A DNA stretch of 38,553 bases from Escherichia phage T7. The stretch lies in the sequence record MG833025.1; one strand, given 5' to 3'. The position numbers and the translations under genes were made by a program. Positions 1 to 6,496 of the stretch are shown piece by piece. Position 1 is the first letter of the stretch. Each line of letters starts with the position of its first letter. The notes beneath the pieces were generated by a model. That model did not search any database, had not been told where the DNA came from, and saw only the letters and a list, made by a program, of their open reading frames with translations.

Positions 1-160
1 TCTCACAGTGTACGGACCTAAAGTTCCCCCATAGGGGGTACCTAAAGCCCAGCCAATCACCTAAAGTCAACCTTCGGTTGACCTTGAGGGTTCCCTAAGG
101 GTTGGGGATGACCCTTGGGTTTGTCTTTGGGTGTTACCTTGAGTGTCTCTCTGTGTCCCT
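1..160. repeat. Left direct terminal repeat, identical to 38394-38553
   Basis: The first 160 nt recur exactly at the right end; T7 has a 160-bp terminal redundancy. Confidence 0.95.
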
Positions 161-174
161 ATCTGTTACAGTCT

Positions 175-345
175 CCTAAAGTATCCTCCTAAAGTCACCT
201 CCTAACGTCCATCCTAAAGCCAACACCTAAAGCCTACACCTAAAGACCCATCAAGTCAACGCCTATCTTAAAGTTTAAACATAAAGACCAGACCTAAAGA
301 CCAGACCTAAAGACACTACATAAAGACCAGACCTAAAGACGCCTT
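175..345. repeat. Array of short CCTAAAG-family repeats next to the left terminal repeat
   Basis: Repeated cctaaag/acctaaag units, including the tandem agaccagacctaaag copies, are read directly; T7 has such repeats at its ends. Confidence 0.7.
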
Positions 346-387
346 GTTGTTAGCCATAAAGTGATAACCTTTAATCATTGTCTTTAT

Positions 388-410
388 TAATACAACTCAC
401 TATAAGGAGA
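388..410 (+). promoter_or_regulatory. T7 RNA polymerase promoter phiOL (left replication origin promoter)
   Basis: taatacaactcactataaggaga is a near-consensus 23-mer with +1 near 405. Confidence 0.85.
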
Positions 411-462
411 GACAACTTAAAGAGACTTAAAAGATTAATTTAAAATTTATCAAAAAGAGTAT

Positions 463-498
463 TGACTTAAAGTCTAACCTATAGGATACTTACAGCCA
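463..498 (+). promoter_or_regulatory. Host sigma70 early promoter A1
   Basis: -35 ttgact at 463-468 and -10 gatact at 485-490, at the known T7 A1 position. Confidence 0.85.
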
Positions 499-588
499 TC
501 GAGAGGGACACGGCGAATAGCCATCCCAATCGACACCGGGGTCAACCGGATAAGTAGACAGCCTGATAAGTCGCACGAAAAACAGGTA

Positions 589-626
589 TTGACAACATGA
601 AGTAACATGCAGTAAGATACAAATCG
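589..626 (+). promoter_or_regulatory. Host sigma70 early promoter A2
   Basis: -35 ttgaca at 589-594 and -10 taagat at 613-618. Confidence 0.85.
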
Positions 627-713
627 CTAGGTAACACTAGCAGCGTCAACCGGGCGCACAGTGCCTTCTAGGTGACTTAAGCGCACCACGGCACATAAGG
701 TGAAACAAAACGG

Positions 714-750
714 TTGACAACATGAAGTAAACACGGTACGATGTACCACA
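714..750 (+). promoter_or_regulatory. Host sigma70 early promoter A3
   Basis: -35 ttgaca at 714-719 and -10 tacgat at 737-742. Confidence 0.85.
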
Positions 751-924
751 TGAAACGACAGTGAGTCACCACACTGAAAGGTGATGCGGTCTAACGAAAC
801 CTGACCTAAGACGCTCTTTAACAATCTGGTAAATAGCTCTTGAGTGCATGACTAGCGGATAACTCAAGGGTATCGCAAGGTGCCCTTTATGATATTCACT
901 AATAACTGCACGAGGTAACACAAG

Positions 925-1278
925 ATGGCTATGTCTAACATGACTTACAACAACGTTTTCGACCACGCTTACGAAATGCTGAAAGAAAACATCCGTTATG
1001 ATGACATCCGTGACACTGATGACCTGCACGATGCTATTCACATGGCTGCCGATAATGCAGTTCCGCACTACTACGCTGACATCTTTAGCGTAATGGCAAG
1101 TGAGGGCATTGACCTTGAGTTCGAAGACTCTGGTCTGATGCCTGACACCAAGGACGTAATCCGCATCCTGCAAGCGCGTATCTATGAGCAATTAACGATT
1201 GACCTCTGGGAAGACGCAGAAGACTTGCTCAATGAATACTTGGAGGAAGTCGAGGAGTACGAGGAGGATGAAGAGTAA
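925..1278 (+). CDS. 0.3: Ocr, DNA-mimic inhibitor of type I restriction-modification
   Basis: 117-aa acidic protein [22 protein letters not shown]... matching T7 gp0.3, first gene after A1-A3. Confidence 0.95.
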
Positions 1279-1433
1279 TGTCTACTACCAACGTGCAATA
1301 CGGTCTGACCGCTCAAACTGTACTTTTCTATAGCGACATGGTGCGCTGTGGCTTTAACTGGTCACTCGCAATGGCACAGCTCAAAGAACTGTACGAAAAC
1401 AACAAGGCAATAGCTTTAGAATCTGCTGAGTGA
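1278..1433 (+). CDS. 0.4: Gene 0.4 small protein (51 aa)
   Basis: The ATG overlaps the 0.3 stop (taATG); [51 protein letters not shown]. It is below the ORF-track size cutoff. Confidence 0.8.
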   Translation: MSTTNVQYGLTAQTVLFYSDMVRCGFNWSLAMAQLKELYENNKAIALESAE

Positions 1434-1490
1434 TAGACTCAAGGTCGCTCCTAGCGAGTGGCCTTTTTGATTATCACTTTACTTATGAGG
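1434..1490 (+). promoter_or_regulatory. Probable RNase III processing site (R0.5-like) with the native gene 0.5 RBS
   Basis: actcaaggtcgctcctagcgagtggcc can form a hairpin like T7 RNase III sites; gaggga lies just before the ATG at 1496. Confidence 0.55.
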
Positions 1491-1495
1491 GAGTA

Positions 1496-2491
1496 ATGAG
1501 CATCGCGGCGACCCTGGAGAACGATCTGGCGCGTCTGGAAAACGAAAACGCTCGTCTCGAAAAAGACATCGCGAACCTGGAACGTGACCTGGCGAAACTG
1601 GAGCGTGAAGAAGCGTACTTCGGAGGTTCAGGTGGTAAGAACACTGGTGAAATCTCTGAGAAAGTCAAGCTGGGCACTAAGGCACTGGCTGGTCAATGGC
1701 TGGCTTACGGTGTTACTCGCAGTGTGACTAAGAGTTCAGTCATGACGCTGGCTTACGGGTCCAAAGAGTTCGGCTTCCGTCAACAAGTGCTGGAAGATAC
1801 CATTCAGCCAGCTATTGATTCCGGCAAGGGTCTGATGTTCACTCAGCCGAATCAGGCTGCTGGATACATGGCTAAGCTGATTTGGGAATCTGTGAGCGTG
1901 ACGGTGGTAGCTGCGGTTGAAGCAATGAACTGGCTTAAGTCTGCTGCTAAGCTGCTGGCTGCTGAGGTCAAAGATAAGAAGACTGGAGAGATTCTTCGCA
2001 AGCGTTGCGCTGTGCATTGGGTAACTCCTGATGGTTTCCCTGTGTGGCAGGAATACAAGAAGCCTATTCAGACGCGCTTGAACCTGATGTTCCTCGGTCA
2101 GTTCCGCTTACAGCCTACCATTAACACCAACAAAGATAGCGAGATTGATGCACACAAACAGGAGTCTGGTATCGCTCCTAACTTTGTACACAGCCAAGAC
2201 GGTAGCCACCTTCGTAAGACTGTAGTGTGGGCACACGAGAAGTACGGAATCGAATCTTTTGCACTGATTCACGACTCCTTCGGTACGATTCCGGCTGACG
2301 CTGCGAACCTGTTCAAAGCAGTGCGCGAAACTATGGTTGACACATATGAGTCTTGTGATGTACTGGCTGATTTCTACGACCAGTTCGCTGACCAGTTGCA
2401 CGAGTCTCAATTGGACAAAATGCCAGCACTTCCGGCTAAAGGTAACTTGAACCTCCGTGACATCTTAGAGTCGGACTTCGCGTTCGCGTAA
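1496..2491 (+). CDS. 1: Split T7 RNA polymerase, C-terminal fragment: Met, SYNZIP18-like coiled coil, GGSGG, Lys, polymerase residues 601-883 with apparent R632S
   Basis: Translation SIAATLENDLARLENENARLEKDIANLERDLAKLEREEAYF-GGSGG-KNTGEISEKV... runs to the polymerase C-terminus ...LRDILESDFAFA. It contains motif C (IHDSF, H811/D812) and the specificity-loop region. Confidence 0.93.
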   Translation: MSIAATLENDLARLENENARLEKDIANLERDLAKLEREEAYFGGSGGKNTGEISEKVKLGTKALAGQWLAYGVTRSVTKSSVMTLAYGSKEFGFRQQVLEDTIQPAIDSGKGLMFTQPNQAAGYMAKLIWESVSVTVVAAVEAMNWLKSAAKLLAAEVKDKKTGEILRKRCAVHWVTPDGFPVWQEYKKPIQTRLNLMFLGQFRLQPTINTNKDSEIDAHKQESGIAPNFVHSQDGSHLRKTVVWAHEKYGIESFALIHDSFGTIPADAANLFKAVRETMVDTYESCDVLADFYDQFADQLHESQLDKMPALPAKGNLNLRDILESDFAFA

Positions 2492-2510
2492 TAAAGAGGA
2501 GAAATACTAG
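2491..2510 (+). promoter_or_regulatory. Synthetic intercistronic RBS (aaagaggagaaa plus tactag spacer) after a double stop
   Basis: taataaagaggagaaatactagATG matches a standard synthetic-biology RBS part with an assembly scar; this is not native T7 sequence. Confidence 0.8.
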
Positions 2511-4463
2511 ATGAACACGATTAACATCGCTAAGAACGACTTCTCTGACATCGAACTGGCTGCTATCCCGTTCAACACTCTGGCTGACCATTACGGTGAG
2601 CGTTTAGCTCGCGAACAGTTGGCCCTTGAGCATGAGTCTTACGAGATGGGTGAAGCACGCTTCCGCAAGATGTTTGAGCGTCAACTTAAAGCTGGTGAGG
2701 TTGCGGATAACGCTGCCGCCAAGCCTCTCATCACTACCCTACTCCCTAAGATGATTGCACGCATCAACGACTGGTTTGAGGAAGTGAAAGCTAAGCGCGG
2801 CAAGCGCCCGACAGCCTTCCAGTTCCTGCAAGAAATCAAGCCGGAAGCCGTAGCGTACATCACCATTAAGACCACTCTGGCTTGCCTAACCAGTGCTGAC
2901 AATACAACCGTTCAGGCTGTAGCAAGCGCAATCGGTCGGGCCATTGAGGACGAGGCTCGCTTCGGTCGTATCCGTGACCTTGAAGCTAAGCACTTCAAGA
3001 AAAACGTTGAGGAACAACTCAACAAGCGCGTAGGGCACGTCTACAAGAAAGCATTTATGCAAGTTGTCGAGGCTGACATGCTCTCTAAGGGTCTACTCGG
3101 TGGCGAGGCGTGGTCTTCGTGGCATAAGGAAGACTCTATTCATGTAGGAGTACGCTGCATCGAGATGCTCATTGAGTCAACCGGAATGGTTAGCTTACAC
3201 CGCCAAAATGCTGGCGTAGTAGGTCAAGACTCTGAGACTATCGAACTCGCACCTGAATACGCTGAGGCTATCGCAACCCGTGCAGGTGCGCTGGCTGGCA
3301 TCTCTCCGATGTTCCAACCTTGCGTAGTTCCTCCTAAGCCGTGGACTGGCATTACTGGTGGTGGCTATTGGGCTAACGGTCGTCGTCCTCTGGCGCTGGT
3401 GCGTACTCACAGTAAGAAAGCACTGATGCGCTACGAAGACGTTTACATGCCTGAGGTGTACAAAGCGATTAACATTGCGCAAAACACCGCATGGAAAATC
3501 AACAAGAAAGTCCTAGCGGTCGCCAACGTAATCACCAAGTGGAAGCATTGTCCGGTCGAGGACATCCCTGCGATTGAGCGTGAAGAACTCCCGATGAAAC
3601 CGGAAGACATCGACATGAATCCTGAGGCTCTCACCGCGTGGAAACGTGCTGCCGCTGCTGTGTACCGCAAGGACAAGGCTCGCAAGTCTCGCCGTATCAG
3701 CCTTGAGTTCATGCTTGAGCAAGCCAATAAGTTTGCTAACCATAAGGCCATCTGGTTCCCTTACAACATGGACTGGCGCGGTCGTGTTTACGCTGTGTCA
3801 ATGTTCAACCCGCAAGGTAACGATATGACCAAAGGACTGCTTACGCTGGCGAAAGGTAAACCAATCGGTAAGGAAGGTTACTACTGGCTGAAAATCCACG
3901 GTGCAAACTGTGCGGGTGTCGACAAGGTTCCGTTCCCTGAGCGCATCAAGTTCATTGAGGAAAACCACGAGAACATCATGGCTTGCGCTAAGTCTCCACT
4001 GGAGAACACTTGGTGGGCTGAGCAAGATTCTCCGTTCTGCTTCCTTGCGTTCTGCTTTGAGTACGCTGGGGTACAGCACCACGGCCTGAGCTATAACTGC
4101 TCCCTTCCGCTGGCGTTTGACGGGTCTTGCTCTGGCATCCAGCACTTCTCCGCGATGCTCCGAGATGAGGTAGGTGGTCGCGCGGTTAACTTGCTTCCTA
4201 GTGAAACCGTTCAGGACATCTACGGGATTGTTGCTAAGAAAGTCAACGAGATTCTACAAGCAGACGCAATCAATGGGACCGATAACGAAGTAGTTACCGT
4301 GACCGATGAGAACGGAGGTTCAGGTGGTGGATCCAACGAAAAAGAAGAACTGAAATCCAAAAAAGCGGAACTGCGCAACCGTATCGAACAGCTGAAACAG
4401 AAACGTGAACAACTGAAGCAGAAAATCGCGAACCTGCGTAAAGAAATCGAAGCTTACAAATAA
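2511..4463 (+). CDS. 1: Split T7 RNA polymerase, N-terminal fragment: residues 1-601, GGSGGGS, SYNZIP17-like coiled coil
   Basis: MNTINIAKNDFSDIELAAIPFNTLADHYGERLAREQ... runs to ...NEVVTVTDEN, then GGSGGGS and NEKEELKSKKAELRNRIEQLKQKREQLKQKIANLRKEIEAYK. It contains motif A (D537). Confidence 0.93.
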   Translation: MNTINIAKNDFSDIELAAIPFNTLADHYGERLAREQLALEHESYEMGEARFRKMFERQLKAGEVADNAAAKPLITTLLPKMIARINDWFEEVKAKRGKRPTAFQFLQEIKPEAVAYITIKTTLACLTSADNTTVQAVASAIGRAIEDEARFGRIRDLEAKHFKKNVEEQLNKRVGHVYKKAFMQVVEADMLSKGLLGGEAWSSWHKEDSIHVGVRCIEMLIESTGMVSLHRQNAGVVGQDSETIELAPEYAEAIATRAGALAGISPMFQPCVVPPKPWTGITGGGYWANGRRPLALVRTHSKKALMRYEDVYMPEVYKAINIAQNTAWKINKKVLAVANVITKWKHCPVEDIPAIEREELPMKPEDIDMNPEALTAWKRAAAAVYRKDKARKSRRISLEFMLEQANKFANHKAIWFPYNMDWRGRVYAVSMFNPQGNDMTKGLLTLAKGKPIGKEGYYWLKIHGANCAGVDKVPFPERIKFIEENHENIMACAKSPLENTWWAEQDSPFCFLAFCFEYAGVQHHGLSYNCSLPLAFDGSCSGIQHFSAMLRDEVGGRAVNLLPSETVQDIYGIVAKKVNEILQADAINGTDNEVVTVTDENGGSGGGSNEKEELKSKKAELRNRIEQLKQKREQLKQKIANLRKEIEAYK

Positions 4464-4520
4464 GAGGGACAAACTCAAGGTCATTCGCAAGAGTGGCCTT
4501 TATGATTGACCTTCTTCCGG
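4464..4520 (+). promoter_or_regulatory. RNase III processing site R1.1 region
   Basis: gagggacaaactcaaggtcattcgcaagagtggcctttatgattgacc has a hairpin-capable actcaagg...gagtggcc motif like other T7 RNase III sites. Confidence 0.55.
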
Positions 4521-4521
4521 T

Positions 4522-4544
4522 TAATACGACTCACTATAGGAGAA
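4522..4544 (+). promoter_or_regulatory. T7 promoter phi1.1B
   Basis: taatacgactcactataggagaa, +1 near 4539. Confidence 0.9.
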
Positions 4545-4622
4545 CCTTAAGGTTTAACTTTAAGACCCTTAAGTGTTAATTAGAGATTTAAATTAAAGAA
4601 TTACTAAGAGAGGACTTTAAGT
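4545..4622. other. AT-rich region of the primary origin of replication
   Basis: AT-rich tract ttaaggtttaactttaag...agatttaaattaaagaattac just downstream of phi1.1B, where the T7 primary origin lies. Confidence 0.6.
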
Positions 4623-4751
4623 ATGCGTAACTTCGAAAAGATGACCAAACGTTCTAACCGTAATGCTCGTGACTTCGAGGCAACCAAAGGTCGCAAGTTG
4701 AATAAGACTAAGCGTGACCGCTCTCACAAGCGTAGCTGGGAGGGTCAGTAA
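4623..4751 (+). CDS. 1.1: Gene 1.1 small basic protein (42 aa)
   Basis: MRNFEKMTKRSNRNARDFEATKGRKLNKTKRDRSHKRSWEGQ with RBS gagagga upstream. Confidence 0.8.
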   Translation: MRNFEKMTKRSNRNARDFEATKGRKLNKTKRDRSHKRSWEGQ

Positions 4752-4752
4752 G

Positions 4753-5010
4753 ATGGGACGTTTATATAGTGGTAATCTGGCAGCATTCAAGGCAGCAACA
4801 AACAAGCTGTTCCAGTTAGACTTAGCGGTCATTTATGATGACTGGTATGATGCCTATACAAGAAAAGATTGCATACGGTTACGTATTGAGGACAGGAGTG
4901 GAAACCTGATTGATACTAGCACCTTCTACCACCACGACGAGGACGTTCTGTTCAATATGTGTACTGATTGGTTGAACCATATGTATGACCAGTTGAAGGA
5001 CTGGAAGTAA
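4753..5010 (+). CDS. 1.2: Gene 1.2, inhibitor of host dGTPase
   Basis: MGRLYSGNLAAFKAATNKLFQLDLAVIYDDWYDAY... 85 aa. Confidence 0.85.
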   Translation: MGRLYSGNLAAFKAATNKLFQLDLAVIYDDWYDAYTRKDCIRLRIEDRSGNLIDTSTFYHHDEDVLFNMCTDWLNHMYDQLKDWK

Positions 5011-5030
5011 TACGACTCAGTATAGGGACA
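5008..5030 (+). promoter_or_regulatory. T7 promoter phi1.3
   Basis: taatacgactcagtatagggaca, +1 near 5025. Confidence 0.9.
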
Positions 5031-5090
5031 ATGCTTAAGGTCGCTCTCTAGGAGTGGCCTTAGTCATTTAACCAATAGGAGATAAACATT

Positions 5091-6170
5091 ATGATGAACA
5101 TTAAGACTAACCCGTTTAAAGCCGTGTCTTTCGTAGAGTCTGCCATTAAGAAGGCTCTGGATAACGCTGGGTATCTTATCGCTGAAATCAAGTACGATGG
5201 TGTACGCGGGAACATCTGCGTAGACAATACTGCTAACAGTTACTGGCTCTCTCGTGTATCTAAAACGATTCCGGCACTGGAGCACTTAAACGGGTTTGAT
5301 GTTCGCTGGAAGCGTCTACTGAACGATGACCGTTGCTTCTACAAAGATGGCTTTATGCTTGATGGGGAACTCATGGTCAAGGGCGTAGACTTTAACACAG
5401 GGTCCGGCCTACTGCGTACCAAATGGACTGACACGAAGAACCAAGAGTTCCATGAAGAGTTATTCGTTGAACCAATCCGTAAGAAAGATAAAGTTCCCTT
5501 TAAGCTGCACACTGGACACCTTCACATAAAACTGTACGCTATCCTCCCGCTGCACATCGTGGAGTCTGGAGAAGACTGTGATGTCATGACGTTGCTCATG
5601 CAGGAACACGTTAAGAACATGCTGCCTCTGCTACAGGAATACTTCCCTGAAATCGAATGGCAAGCGGCTGAATCTTACGAGGTCTACGATATGGTAGAAC
5701 TACAGCAACTGTACGAGCAGAAGCGAGCAGAAGGCCATGAGGGTCTCATTGTGAAAGACCCGATGTGTATCTATAAGCGCGGTAAGAAATCTGGCTGGTG
5801 GAAAATGAAACCTGAGAACGAAGCTGACGGTATCATTCAGGGTCTGGTATGGGGTACAAAAGGTCTGGCTAATGAAGGTAAAGTGATTGGTTTTGAGGTG
5901 CTTCTTGAGAGTGGTCGTTTAGTTAACGCCACGAATATCTCTCGCGCCTTAATGGATGAGTTCACTGAGACAGTAAAAGAGGCCACCCTAAGTCAATGGG
6001 GATTCTTTAGCCCATACGGTATTGGCGACAACGATGCTTGTACTATTAACCCTTACGATGGCTGGGCGTGTCAAATTAGCTACATGGAGGAAACACCTGA
6101 TGGCTCTTTGCGGCACCCATCGTTCGTAATGTTCCGTGGCACCGAGGACAACCCTCAAGAGAAAATGTAA
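5091..6170 (+). CDS. 1.3: ATP-dependent DNA ligase
   Basis: 359 aa with the KYDGVRG adenylation motif (lysine nucleotidyltransferase motif I). Confidence 0.95.
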   Translation: MMNIKTNPFKAVSFVESAIKKALDNAGYLIAEIKYDGVRGNICVDNTANSYWLSRVSKTIPALEHLNGFDVRWKRLLNDDRCFYKDGFMLDGELMVKGVDFNTGSGLLRTKWTDTKNQEFHEELFVEPIRKKDKVPFKLHTGHLHIKLYAILPLHIVESGEDCDVMTLLMQEHVKNMLPLLQEYFPEIEWQAAESYEVYDMVELQQLYEQKRAEGHEGLIVKDPMCIYKRGKKSGWWKMKPENEADGIIQGLVWGTKGLANEGKVIGFEVLLESGRLVNATNISRALMDEFTETVKEATLSQWGFFSPYGIGDNDACTINPYDGWACQISYMEETPDGSLRHPSFVMFRGTEDNPQEKM

Positions 6171-6175
6171 TCACA

Positions 6176-6210
6176 CTGGCTCACCTTCGGGTGGGCCTTT
6201 CTGCGTTTAT
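6176..6210 (+). terminator. Early intrinsic terminator TE for host RNA polymerase
   Basis: GC-rich hairpin ggctcacc-ttcg-ggtgggcc followed by tttctgcgttta. Confidence 0.8.
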
Positions 6211-6223
6211 AAGGAGACACTTT

Positions 6224-6379
6224 ATGTTTAAGAAGGTTGGTAAATTCCTTGCGGCTTTGGCAGCTATCCTGACGCTTGCGTATATTCTTGCGGTATACCC
6301 TCAAGTAGCACTAGTAGTAGTTGGCGCTTGTTACTTAGCGGCAGTGTGTGCTTGCGTGTGGAGTATAGTTAACTGGTAA
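6224..6379 (+). CDS. 1.4: Gene 1.4 small hydrophobic protein (51 aa)
   Basis: MFKKVGKFLAALAAILTLAYILAV... with RBS aaggag 8 nt upstream; the ORF-track entry 6191-6379 is an upstream extension. Confidence 0.7.
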   Translation: MFKKVGKFLAALAAILTLAYILAVYPQVALVVVGACYLAAVCACVWSIVNW

Positions 6380-6399
6380 TACGACTCACTAAAGGAGGT
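6377..6399 (+). promoter_or_regulatory. T7 promoter phi1.5
   Basis: taatacgactcactaaaggaggt. Confidence 0.9.
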
Positions 6400-6406
6400 A
6401 CACACC

Positions 6407-6496
6407 ATGATGTACTTAATGCCATTACTCATCGTCATTGTAGGATGCCTTGCGCTCCACTGTAGCGATGATGATATGCCAGATGGTCACGCTTAA
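6407..6496 (+). CDS. 1.5: Gene 1.5 (29 aa)
   Basis: ATG after aggaggt; MMYLMPLLIVIVGCLALHCSDDDMPDGHA. Confidence 0.6.
   Translation: MMYLMPLLIVIVGCLALHCSDDDMPDGHA

Follow-up and report, generated by a model that had tools for sequence, protein, structure and literature searches.

The first part of the ORF at 1496-2491 (+) is almost certainly SYNZIP18 followed by a GGSGG linker, a designed fusion to the sigma fragment of a split T7 RNA polymerase (RNAP) carrying R632S, in the engineered phage T7 JB 13-78 (MG833025). The window, meaning the whole stretch of DNA analyzed, comprises all 38,553 bp of a complete T7 genome, 160-bp terminal repeats included. The translation of the ORF begins MSIAATLENDLARLENENARLEKDIANLERDLAKLEREEAYFGGSGGKNTGEISEKV, and its layout is M-SIAATLENDLARLENENARLEKDIANLERDLAKLEREEAYF-GGSGG-K-NTGEISEKV.... 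A first-pass annotation had placed a designed coiled coil and linker at 1496-1636. These coordinates were exact: Met, a 41-residue peptide and GGSGG fill the interval with no residue left over. We identified the phage as JB 13-78 from the description in the source paper and from our checks of its mutation coordinates, of which those within or upstream of the cassette match the window directly.

Alignment to the T7 reference resolved the window into four T7 blocks, and all of the sequence between these blocks is synthetic. Window 1-1498 corresponds to T7 1-1498 with a single mismatch at 1467, 1638-2491 to T7 4969-5822 (polymerase residues 601-883), 2506-4313 to T7 3166-4973 (polymerase residues 1-601 from 2511), and 4463-38553 to T7 5847-39937 at 100% identity. 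A two-ORF cassette, with the sigma fragment first and the core second, stands in place of genes 0.5 (annotated at 1496-1639 in T7), 0.6A/B, 0.7 and 1. T7 1499-3165 and 5823-5846 are absent from the window, which also lacks the intergenic stretch that precedes gene 1 and the greater part of promoter phi1.1A. The synthetic stretch at 1499-1637 runs from SYNZIP18 through the linker to the opening base of a putative Lys scar codon. Another, at 4314-4463, encodes GGSGGGS, then NEKEELKSKKAELRNRIEQLKQKREQLKQKIANLRKEIEAYK, then a stop, with SYNZIP17 at the C-terminus of RNAP residues 1-601 (...DEN-GGSGGGS-SZ17). The features of the cassette and its borders are as follows.

1467..1467 (+): A>T relative to wild-type T7, within the R0.5 RNase III hairpin, in its internal loop (T7 alignment).
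1487..1498 (+): native gene 0.5 Shine-Dalgarno GAGGGAG (1487-1493) and ATG (1496-1498), reused for the sigma fusion (T7 alignment).
1499..1621 (+): SYNZIP18, an acidic synthetic coiled-coil peptide of 41 codons, residues 2-42 (translation, string identity, heptad register, AlphaFold2).
1622..1636 (+): GGSGG flexible linker (translation; a "short flexible linker" in PMC4299498).
1637..1639 (+): AAG Lys codon, non-native, a putative scar (block overlap at T7 4969-4973).
1640..2491 (+): T7 RNAP residues 601-883 (the "sigma fragment") and stop (T7 alignment).
2492..2510 (+): spacer taaagaggagaaatactag, 19 nt, with an extra TAA stop and a synthetic ribosome-binding site (RBS) (sequence).
2511..4313 (+): T7 RNAP residues 1-601 (the "core" or alpha-beta fragment), T7 nt 3171-4973 (T7 alignment).
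4314..4334 (+): GGSGGGS flexible linker (translation, T7 alignment).
4335..4463 (+): SYNZIP17, the basic partner of SYNZIP18, 42 codons (4335-4460) and TAA ("Syn17" identity, heptad register).
4463..4520 (+): right junction with T7 at T7 nt 5847; phi1.1A is cut short by loss of positions -17 to -2; the R1.1 RNase III site remains (T7 alignment).

The RBS in the spacer is probably BioBrick B0034 plus scar. Within the polymerase blocks we observed R632S at window 1733 (C>A, codon CGT>AGT), a silent T816 change at 2287 (ACC>ACG) that abolishes GGTACC, and a silent D471 change at 3923 (GAT>GAC) that generates GTCGAC.

To establish the identity of the peptide, we compared it with published strings. 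Residues 2-42 were identical at 41/41 positions to "Syn18" in the key resources table of PMC8477956, a paper that credits Syn18 to Thompson et al. 2012 and picked the SYNZIP17/18 pair for its antiparallel orientation. The peptide on the core fragment was equal to "Syn17" in the same source. The first-pass annotation had called the segment "SYNZIP18-like"; the string identity bears out the SYNZIP assignment, and the suffix proved too weak, the peptide being SYNZIP18 itself. The zipper and GGSGG sit on the N-terminus of the C-terminal polymerase fragment, as had been proposed, and this fragment is T7 RNAP residues 601-883, as in PMC4299498.

Both fusion proteins were present in NCBI by exact look-up (AVH85520.1 and AVH85521.1, "RNA polymerase [Escherichia phage T7]"). 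The 650-aa core fusion was identical to APA32048.1, "Core polymerase-SZ17 [Synthetic plasmid pCore]". Residues 1-79 of the sigma fusion were identical to APA32051.1, "SZ18-T3_sigma_factor [Synthetic plasmid pTac-T3]", including M-SZ18-GGSGG-K-N601, and APA32051.1 belongs to the same protein cluster as the sigma fusion. In the PDB, the nearest neighbor of the peptide was SYNZIP6 (3HE4 chain A; E = 2e-10 over 36 residues), and the next matches were to other designed coiled coils. The copy of the PDB that we searched held no solved structure of SYNZIP17 or SYNZIP18, and SYNZIP6 was the sole solved relative with strong similarity. This would be the pattern to start from if the zipper were designed but were another SYNZIP member or a generic E/K coil. 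We regard that reading as very improbable: the SYNZIP6 match is partial as against 41/41 for the printed "Syn18", depositors name the same module "SZ18", and PMC4299498 puts SynZIP 18 on the C-terminal fragment.

The peptide also has the expected pattern of a coiled coil. In the best heptad register of SYNZIP18, the d positions are L,L,L,L,L,F and the a positions A,L,N,I,L,E; in the same register the e positions are E,E,E,E,E and the g positions I,D,E,D,D,E. When these residues were shuffled 20,000 times, the a/d core score was reached in only 7 cases. AlphaFold2 modeled residues 1-48 as a single helix at 3-42 (mean pLDDT 90), with the linker at low confidence. The heptad pattern of SYNZIP18 is thus highly non-random, and the register, the shuffles and the predicted helix agree with the initial description of a heptad coiled coil with Leu at d and charged e/g positions. 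In SYNZIP17, the d positions are LLLLLY, and the e/g positions are basic and complementary to those of acidic SYNZIP18.

Codon usage was compared using per-amino-acid binomial tests and a G statistic, with SYNZIP17 and SYNZIP18 pooled. We observed that Leu was encoded by CTG in 11/12 cases in the two zippers, compared to a frequency of 0.25 in T7 genes (P = 2.6e-6). The same held for Ala GCG (8/10 vs 0.16, P = 1.3e-5), Lys AAA (11/12 vs 0.34, P = 5.5e-5) and Glu GAA (14/16 vs 0.40, P = 1.5e-4). The global G statistic was 115, whereas the maximum across 5,000 T7-style recodings was 69. The top E. coli synonymous codon, with preference taken from ribosomal-protein and elongation-factor genes, was used at 66/83 codons in the zippers and at 425/839 in native RNAP sequence. 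Arg CGT was only weakly discriminating (P = 0.013), being T7's own preferred Arg codon too (0.43). The log-likelihood of the insert codons under T7 usage was unremarkable (z = 0.6 and -0.15), a measure that is uninformative here because a peaked but different codon choice scores near average. Zipper codon usage therefore differs significantly from that of T7 and leans to E. coli-preferred codons. The first-pass annotation had rested its case for E. coli-type codons unlike the flanking phage sequence on ctg, cgt and gaa; the binomial tests, the G statistic and the 66/83 count uphold it, except that cgt barely discriminates.

As an alternative to design, a phage RNAP split or rearranged in nature could bear a natural coiled-coil domain, acquired for example by horizontal transfer. 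Coiled coils are common in nature, and we observed weak PDB similarity to natural zippers such as GCN4 and Fos, as any bZIP-like heptad sequence would be expected to give. Nucleotides 1499-1637 had no BLAST match in the T7 reference, in line with the claim that the segment has no counterpart in T7. The DNA of the segment (156 nt), nucleotides 1499-1637 included, had no BLAST match among 50,697 phage records or 72,556 plasmids. A word-based search of limited sensitivity, run across ~5.8 billion protein representatives, gave no homologue of SYNZIP18 with E <= 1e-3. Across the protein, phage, plasmid and PDB searches, no natural phage or host protein aligned with the segment. The identity to published synthetic peptides and to depositor-named synthetic plasmid proteins is exact, and the codons are E. 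coli-type and unlike those of T7. The surroundings are synthetic as well: the spacer carries a synthetic RBS, R632S is a laboratory mutation and a silent change takes out a restriction site. Across the remaining genome, identity to the T7 reference is 100%. Since these searches gave no homologues and the peptide equals synthetic sequences exactly, we rejected a natural coiled-coil origin, which we consider vanishingly improbable. With no natural carriers found and designed peptides as the best PDB matches, the sequence comparisons argue for a synthetic origin of the 41-mer.

The fragment limits (core, aa 1-601; sigma, N601-A883) fit the split at residue 601 described by Segall-Shapiro et al. 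2014. In that work, split sites in T7* RNAP, which is defined by R632S, were mapped with a Mu-derived "splitposon" and residue 601 was chosen (PMC4299498). Short flexible linkers joined SynZIP 17 to the N-terminal "core" and SynZIP 18 to the C-terminal "sigma" fragment; the pair was selected for antiparallel binding, and the activity gain was more than tenfold at low expression (PMC4299498). We observed that the two RNAP blocks of the window share the 5 nt AGAAC (T7 4969-4973; window 1638-1642 in the sigma block) and that one extra A precedes the C-terminal block. In the splitposon, positions -4 to -2 of the transposon end are an ATG (PMC4299498). An in-frame splitposon, with its ATG, one transposon base and a 5-bp duplication, would thus leave an AAG Lys codon and a duplicated N601. 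In that case base 1637 of the Lys codon would come from the transposon end, and its other two bases would be the first two of AGAAC, the 5-bp Mu target-site duplication; we infer that the codon is probably a splitposon scar.

The phage itself was described by Garry, Ellington, Molineux and Bull in 2018 (Virus Evolution, PMC6009699), who placed the two-fragment polymerase in T7-delta-1, a phage that has lost genes 0.5-0.7 together with gene 1 and a portion of phi1.1A, and deposited isolate JB 13-78 as GenBank MG833025. Their purpose was protein fragmentation as a means of viral attenuation, and the two ORFs were reported to lie 19 bases apart with an extra stop codon included (PMC6009699). The window shows all of the design features described. 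The starting fitness of the split-RNAP phage was ~15 doublings per hour compared to ~35 for the wild type, and it recovered to ~37 after ~100 generations with the split retained (PMC6009699). R632S was carried into the phage without mention in PMC6009699.

We checked the mutations in Table 1 of PMC6009699 against the window. Positions 1486 (T), 1893 (V133A), 1929 (N145S) and 4297 (codon 596 Thr>Ile) fit the window coordinates exactly, so that all four mutations within or upstream of the cassette (4/4) fit directly. The four downstream ones (6.7 A18A, 10B E375K, 17 D263N and 19 A172V) fit only after a uniform +38, their published coordinates being 38 nt below those of the window. The reference used for the downstream part of the table must therefore be 38 nt out of step with the window from some point between 4298 and 17536.

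This constant offset raises the question of whether the window is partly an in-silico template, in which the cassette design was pasted into V01146 and details outside the cassette may not mirror the physical phage. Rightward of the cassette, the window agrees with the 1983 reference V01146 at 100% identity over 34,091 nt, and for read mapping the authors used "the template of JB 13-78" (PMC6009699). However, the window has a non-reference base at 1467 that occurs in no other matching phage record, which suggests some read-based correction. We consider a partial template possible but on balance unlikely. It would leave the identity of the 1496-1636 feature, SYNZIP18 and its linker on the sigma fragment, unchanged.

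The base at 1467 was characterized further. The A>T change turns the ATG of a 9-codon upstream ORF (MIITLLMRE), the end of which overlaps the start codon of the sigma fragment, into TTG. T at 1467 was found in 0/82 matching phage records. The predicted structure and energy of the R0.5 hairpin were unchanged (-25.4 kcal/mol), and we dropped a structural effect of the change on R0.5 on the basis of this folding prediction. The change is unreported in PMC6009699. The T>G at 1486, which evolved later, abolishes another upstream ATG, the second, and makes the Shine-Dalgarno sequence longer.

The T at 1467 could raise translation of the sigma fragment because an upstream ATG is lost and because of its location in the R0.5 processing loop. 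The T>G at 1486 would act likewise because the second upstream ATG is lost and the Shine-Dalgarno sequence is extended. On a tentative reading, which we think doubtful, 1467 A>T would be an early compensatory mutation of the founding recombinant plaque. If this were true, and taken together with R632S, part of the "attenuation by fragmentation" and of its recovery would reflect expression level and a pre-existing activity-lowering mutation and would not be due to fragmentation itself.

The layout suggests how the split polymerase may work in the phage. E. coli RNA polymerase would transcribe the early region from A1-A3, as the intact T7 left end implies. The sigma fusion would be translated from the native gene 0.5 RBS and ATG and the core fusion from the synthetic RBS, as read from the sequence. 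Acidic SYNZIP18 and basic SYNZIP17 would pair as an antiparallel coiled coil, the pairing being that reported in PMC4299498 and PMC8477956, and would raise the affinity of the fragments for each other. The tether is on the N-terminus of SYNZIP17 and on the C-terminus of SYNZIP18. With tethers at opposite termini and an antiparallel pair, the two tethers would therefore lie at the same end and bring the two residue-601 ends together; this tether geometry would unite the residue-601 ends only if the pair is antiparallel. The reassembled polymerase, whose activity is taken from the literature, would transcribe the T7 middle and late genes. With sigma upstream of core, a simple deletion would not restore one wild-type reading frame.

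These data place a documented synthetic-biology part in a documented engineered phage, so that the segment was correctly recognized as an artificial construct. The construct and the whole phage were already published (PMC4299498, PMC6009699), and nothing here is new in that respect. The window is a laboratory-engineered genome, and its gene 0.5 to gene 1 region should not be read as natural phage biology. The source study was interested in whether an essential viral protein supplied as two zipper-tethered fragments gives evolutionarily stable attenuation. Overall, synthetic inserts of this kind are recognizable from peptide pattern and codon usage alone.

The SYNZIP toolbox, with its antiparallel heterodimeric SYNZIP17/18 pair, reportedly goes back to Reinke et al. 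2010 and Thompson et al. 2012. The pair in the window is the same in its 41-aa and 42-aa strings, its heptads with Leu at d, its acidic versus basic e/g positions and its use as Gly/Ser-linked fusion tags. The peptides are unchanged, but they are carried here by a replicating phage genome and not by a plasmid or a purified protein. SYNZIP6 (3HE4 chain A) is the closest solved relative and has the repeated motif LENxNAxLEKDIANLE in common with SYNZIP18; it belongs to the same designed set but is a different peptide, not identical to SYNZIP18.

The split site, zipper placement, linkers and R632S of the window are those of Segall-Shapiro et al. 2014, as is the putative splitposon scar with N601 duplicated. 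In the 2014 system, the fragments were on separate plasmids under Ptac or constitutive promoters. In the phage, in contrast, they are adjacent in the T7 early region with sigma first, under native early transcription and with the gene 0.5 RBS and ATG. The window and JB 13-78 as described are the same in the reverse order of the fragments, in the 19-nt spacer with its extra stop, and in the T7-delta-1 deletion limits.

We observed that the sigma fragment of the polymerase cassette, which encodes T7 RNAP residues 601-883 behind SYNZIP18, carries the R632S mutation. This is the toxicity-reducing T7* mutation, passed down to the phage from Voigt-lab constructs, and it has 0 occurrences in the paper describing the phage (PMC6009699). 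The fitness loss ascribed to fragmentation could therefore stem in part from R632S. The polymerase coding sequence also contains two silent substitutions, each altering a restriction site; they probably mark the cloning lineage of the synthetic T7* gene.

Changes in the polymerase coding sequence (window positions)
1733, R632S in the sigma fragment, the T7* mutation
2287, silent T816 ACC>ACG, GGTACC (KpnI) site removed
3923, silent D471 GAT>GAC, GTCGAC (SalI) site created

Outside the window, protein clusters at 90% identity containing T7 RNAP fragments also include partial "DNA-directed RNA polymerase" entries assigned to Pseudomonas aeruginosa, Bacillus cereus, Staphylococcus aureus, Weissella and others. 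These entries come from contigs of 230-800 bp and probably reflect assemblies contaminated with T7 RNAP sequence. The same clusters include several entries named "mRNA capping enzyme small subunit" from Monkeypox virus, a clustering oddity.

Upstream of the sigma fragment, position 1467 is T in the window versus A in all T7 references, and this T was absent from 82 of 82 matching phage records. The change (A>T) turns the first codon of MIITLLMRE, an upstream ORF of 9 codons, from ATG into TTG; the ORF ends in TAATG, overlapping the start codon at 1496. Position 1467 is also part of the internal loop of the R0.5 RNase III hairpin, and the change leaves the predicted fold of this hairpin as it was. 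There is no mention of 1467 A>T in the phage paper (PMC6009699). A second upstream ATG is lost through 1486 T>G, an evolved change in the JB 13-78 lineage (PMC6009699). Its loss suggests that translation of the sigma fragment was under selection.

We compared the published mutation coordinates (Table 1 of PMC6009699) with the window. The four mutations that fall within the polymerase cassette or upstream of it agree with the window unshifted. For the four downstream mutations, the window bases and codon changes agree only with a uniform shift of +38 nt.

Downstream mutations, published and window positions
17498, window 17536
22666, window 22704
33991, window 34029
36465, window 36503

The Table 1 reference thus differs from the window by 38 nt, and the difference falls somewhere in 4298-17536. 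The change at 4297 is named "T530I (T596)" (PMC6009699). Counted along the core-fragment ORF, this position falls in codon 596, so the window sequence offers no obvious basis for the "530" numbering.

At the right-hand junction (window 4461-4475), the SYNZIP17 stop codon of the core fragment directly adjoins T7 nt 5847-5848. Promoter phi1.1A lacks positions -17 to -2 and is expected to be inactive. Downstream of the junction, both the R1.1 RNase III site and promoter phi1.1B are intact. Window 4463-38553 (34,091 nt) matches V01146, the T7 reference of 1983, at 100% identity, which is unusually perfect for a laboratory stock. This identity suggests that the reference served as the mapping template from which the deposited sequence was made, in place of a de novo assembly.

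Both RNAP fragments share a 5-bp duplication at the 601 split.

Copies of AGAAC (T7 4969-4973)
1637-1642, window, including the extra A
4309-4313, window

One extra A stands before the C-terminal copy; the result is a Lys scar, with N601 present in duplicate. Read from the sequence, the duplication and the extra A would be the footprint expected from insertion of the Mu "splitposon" that first defined the 601 split (PMC4299498).
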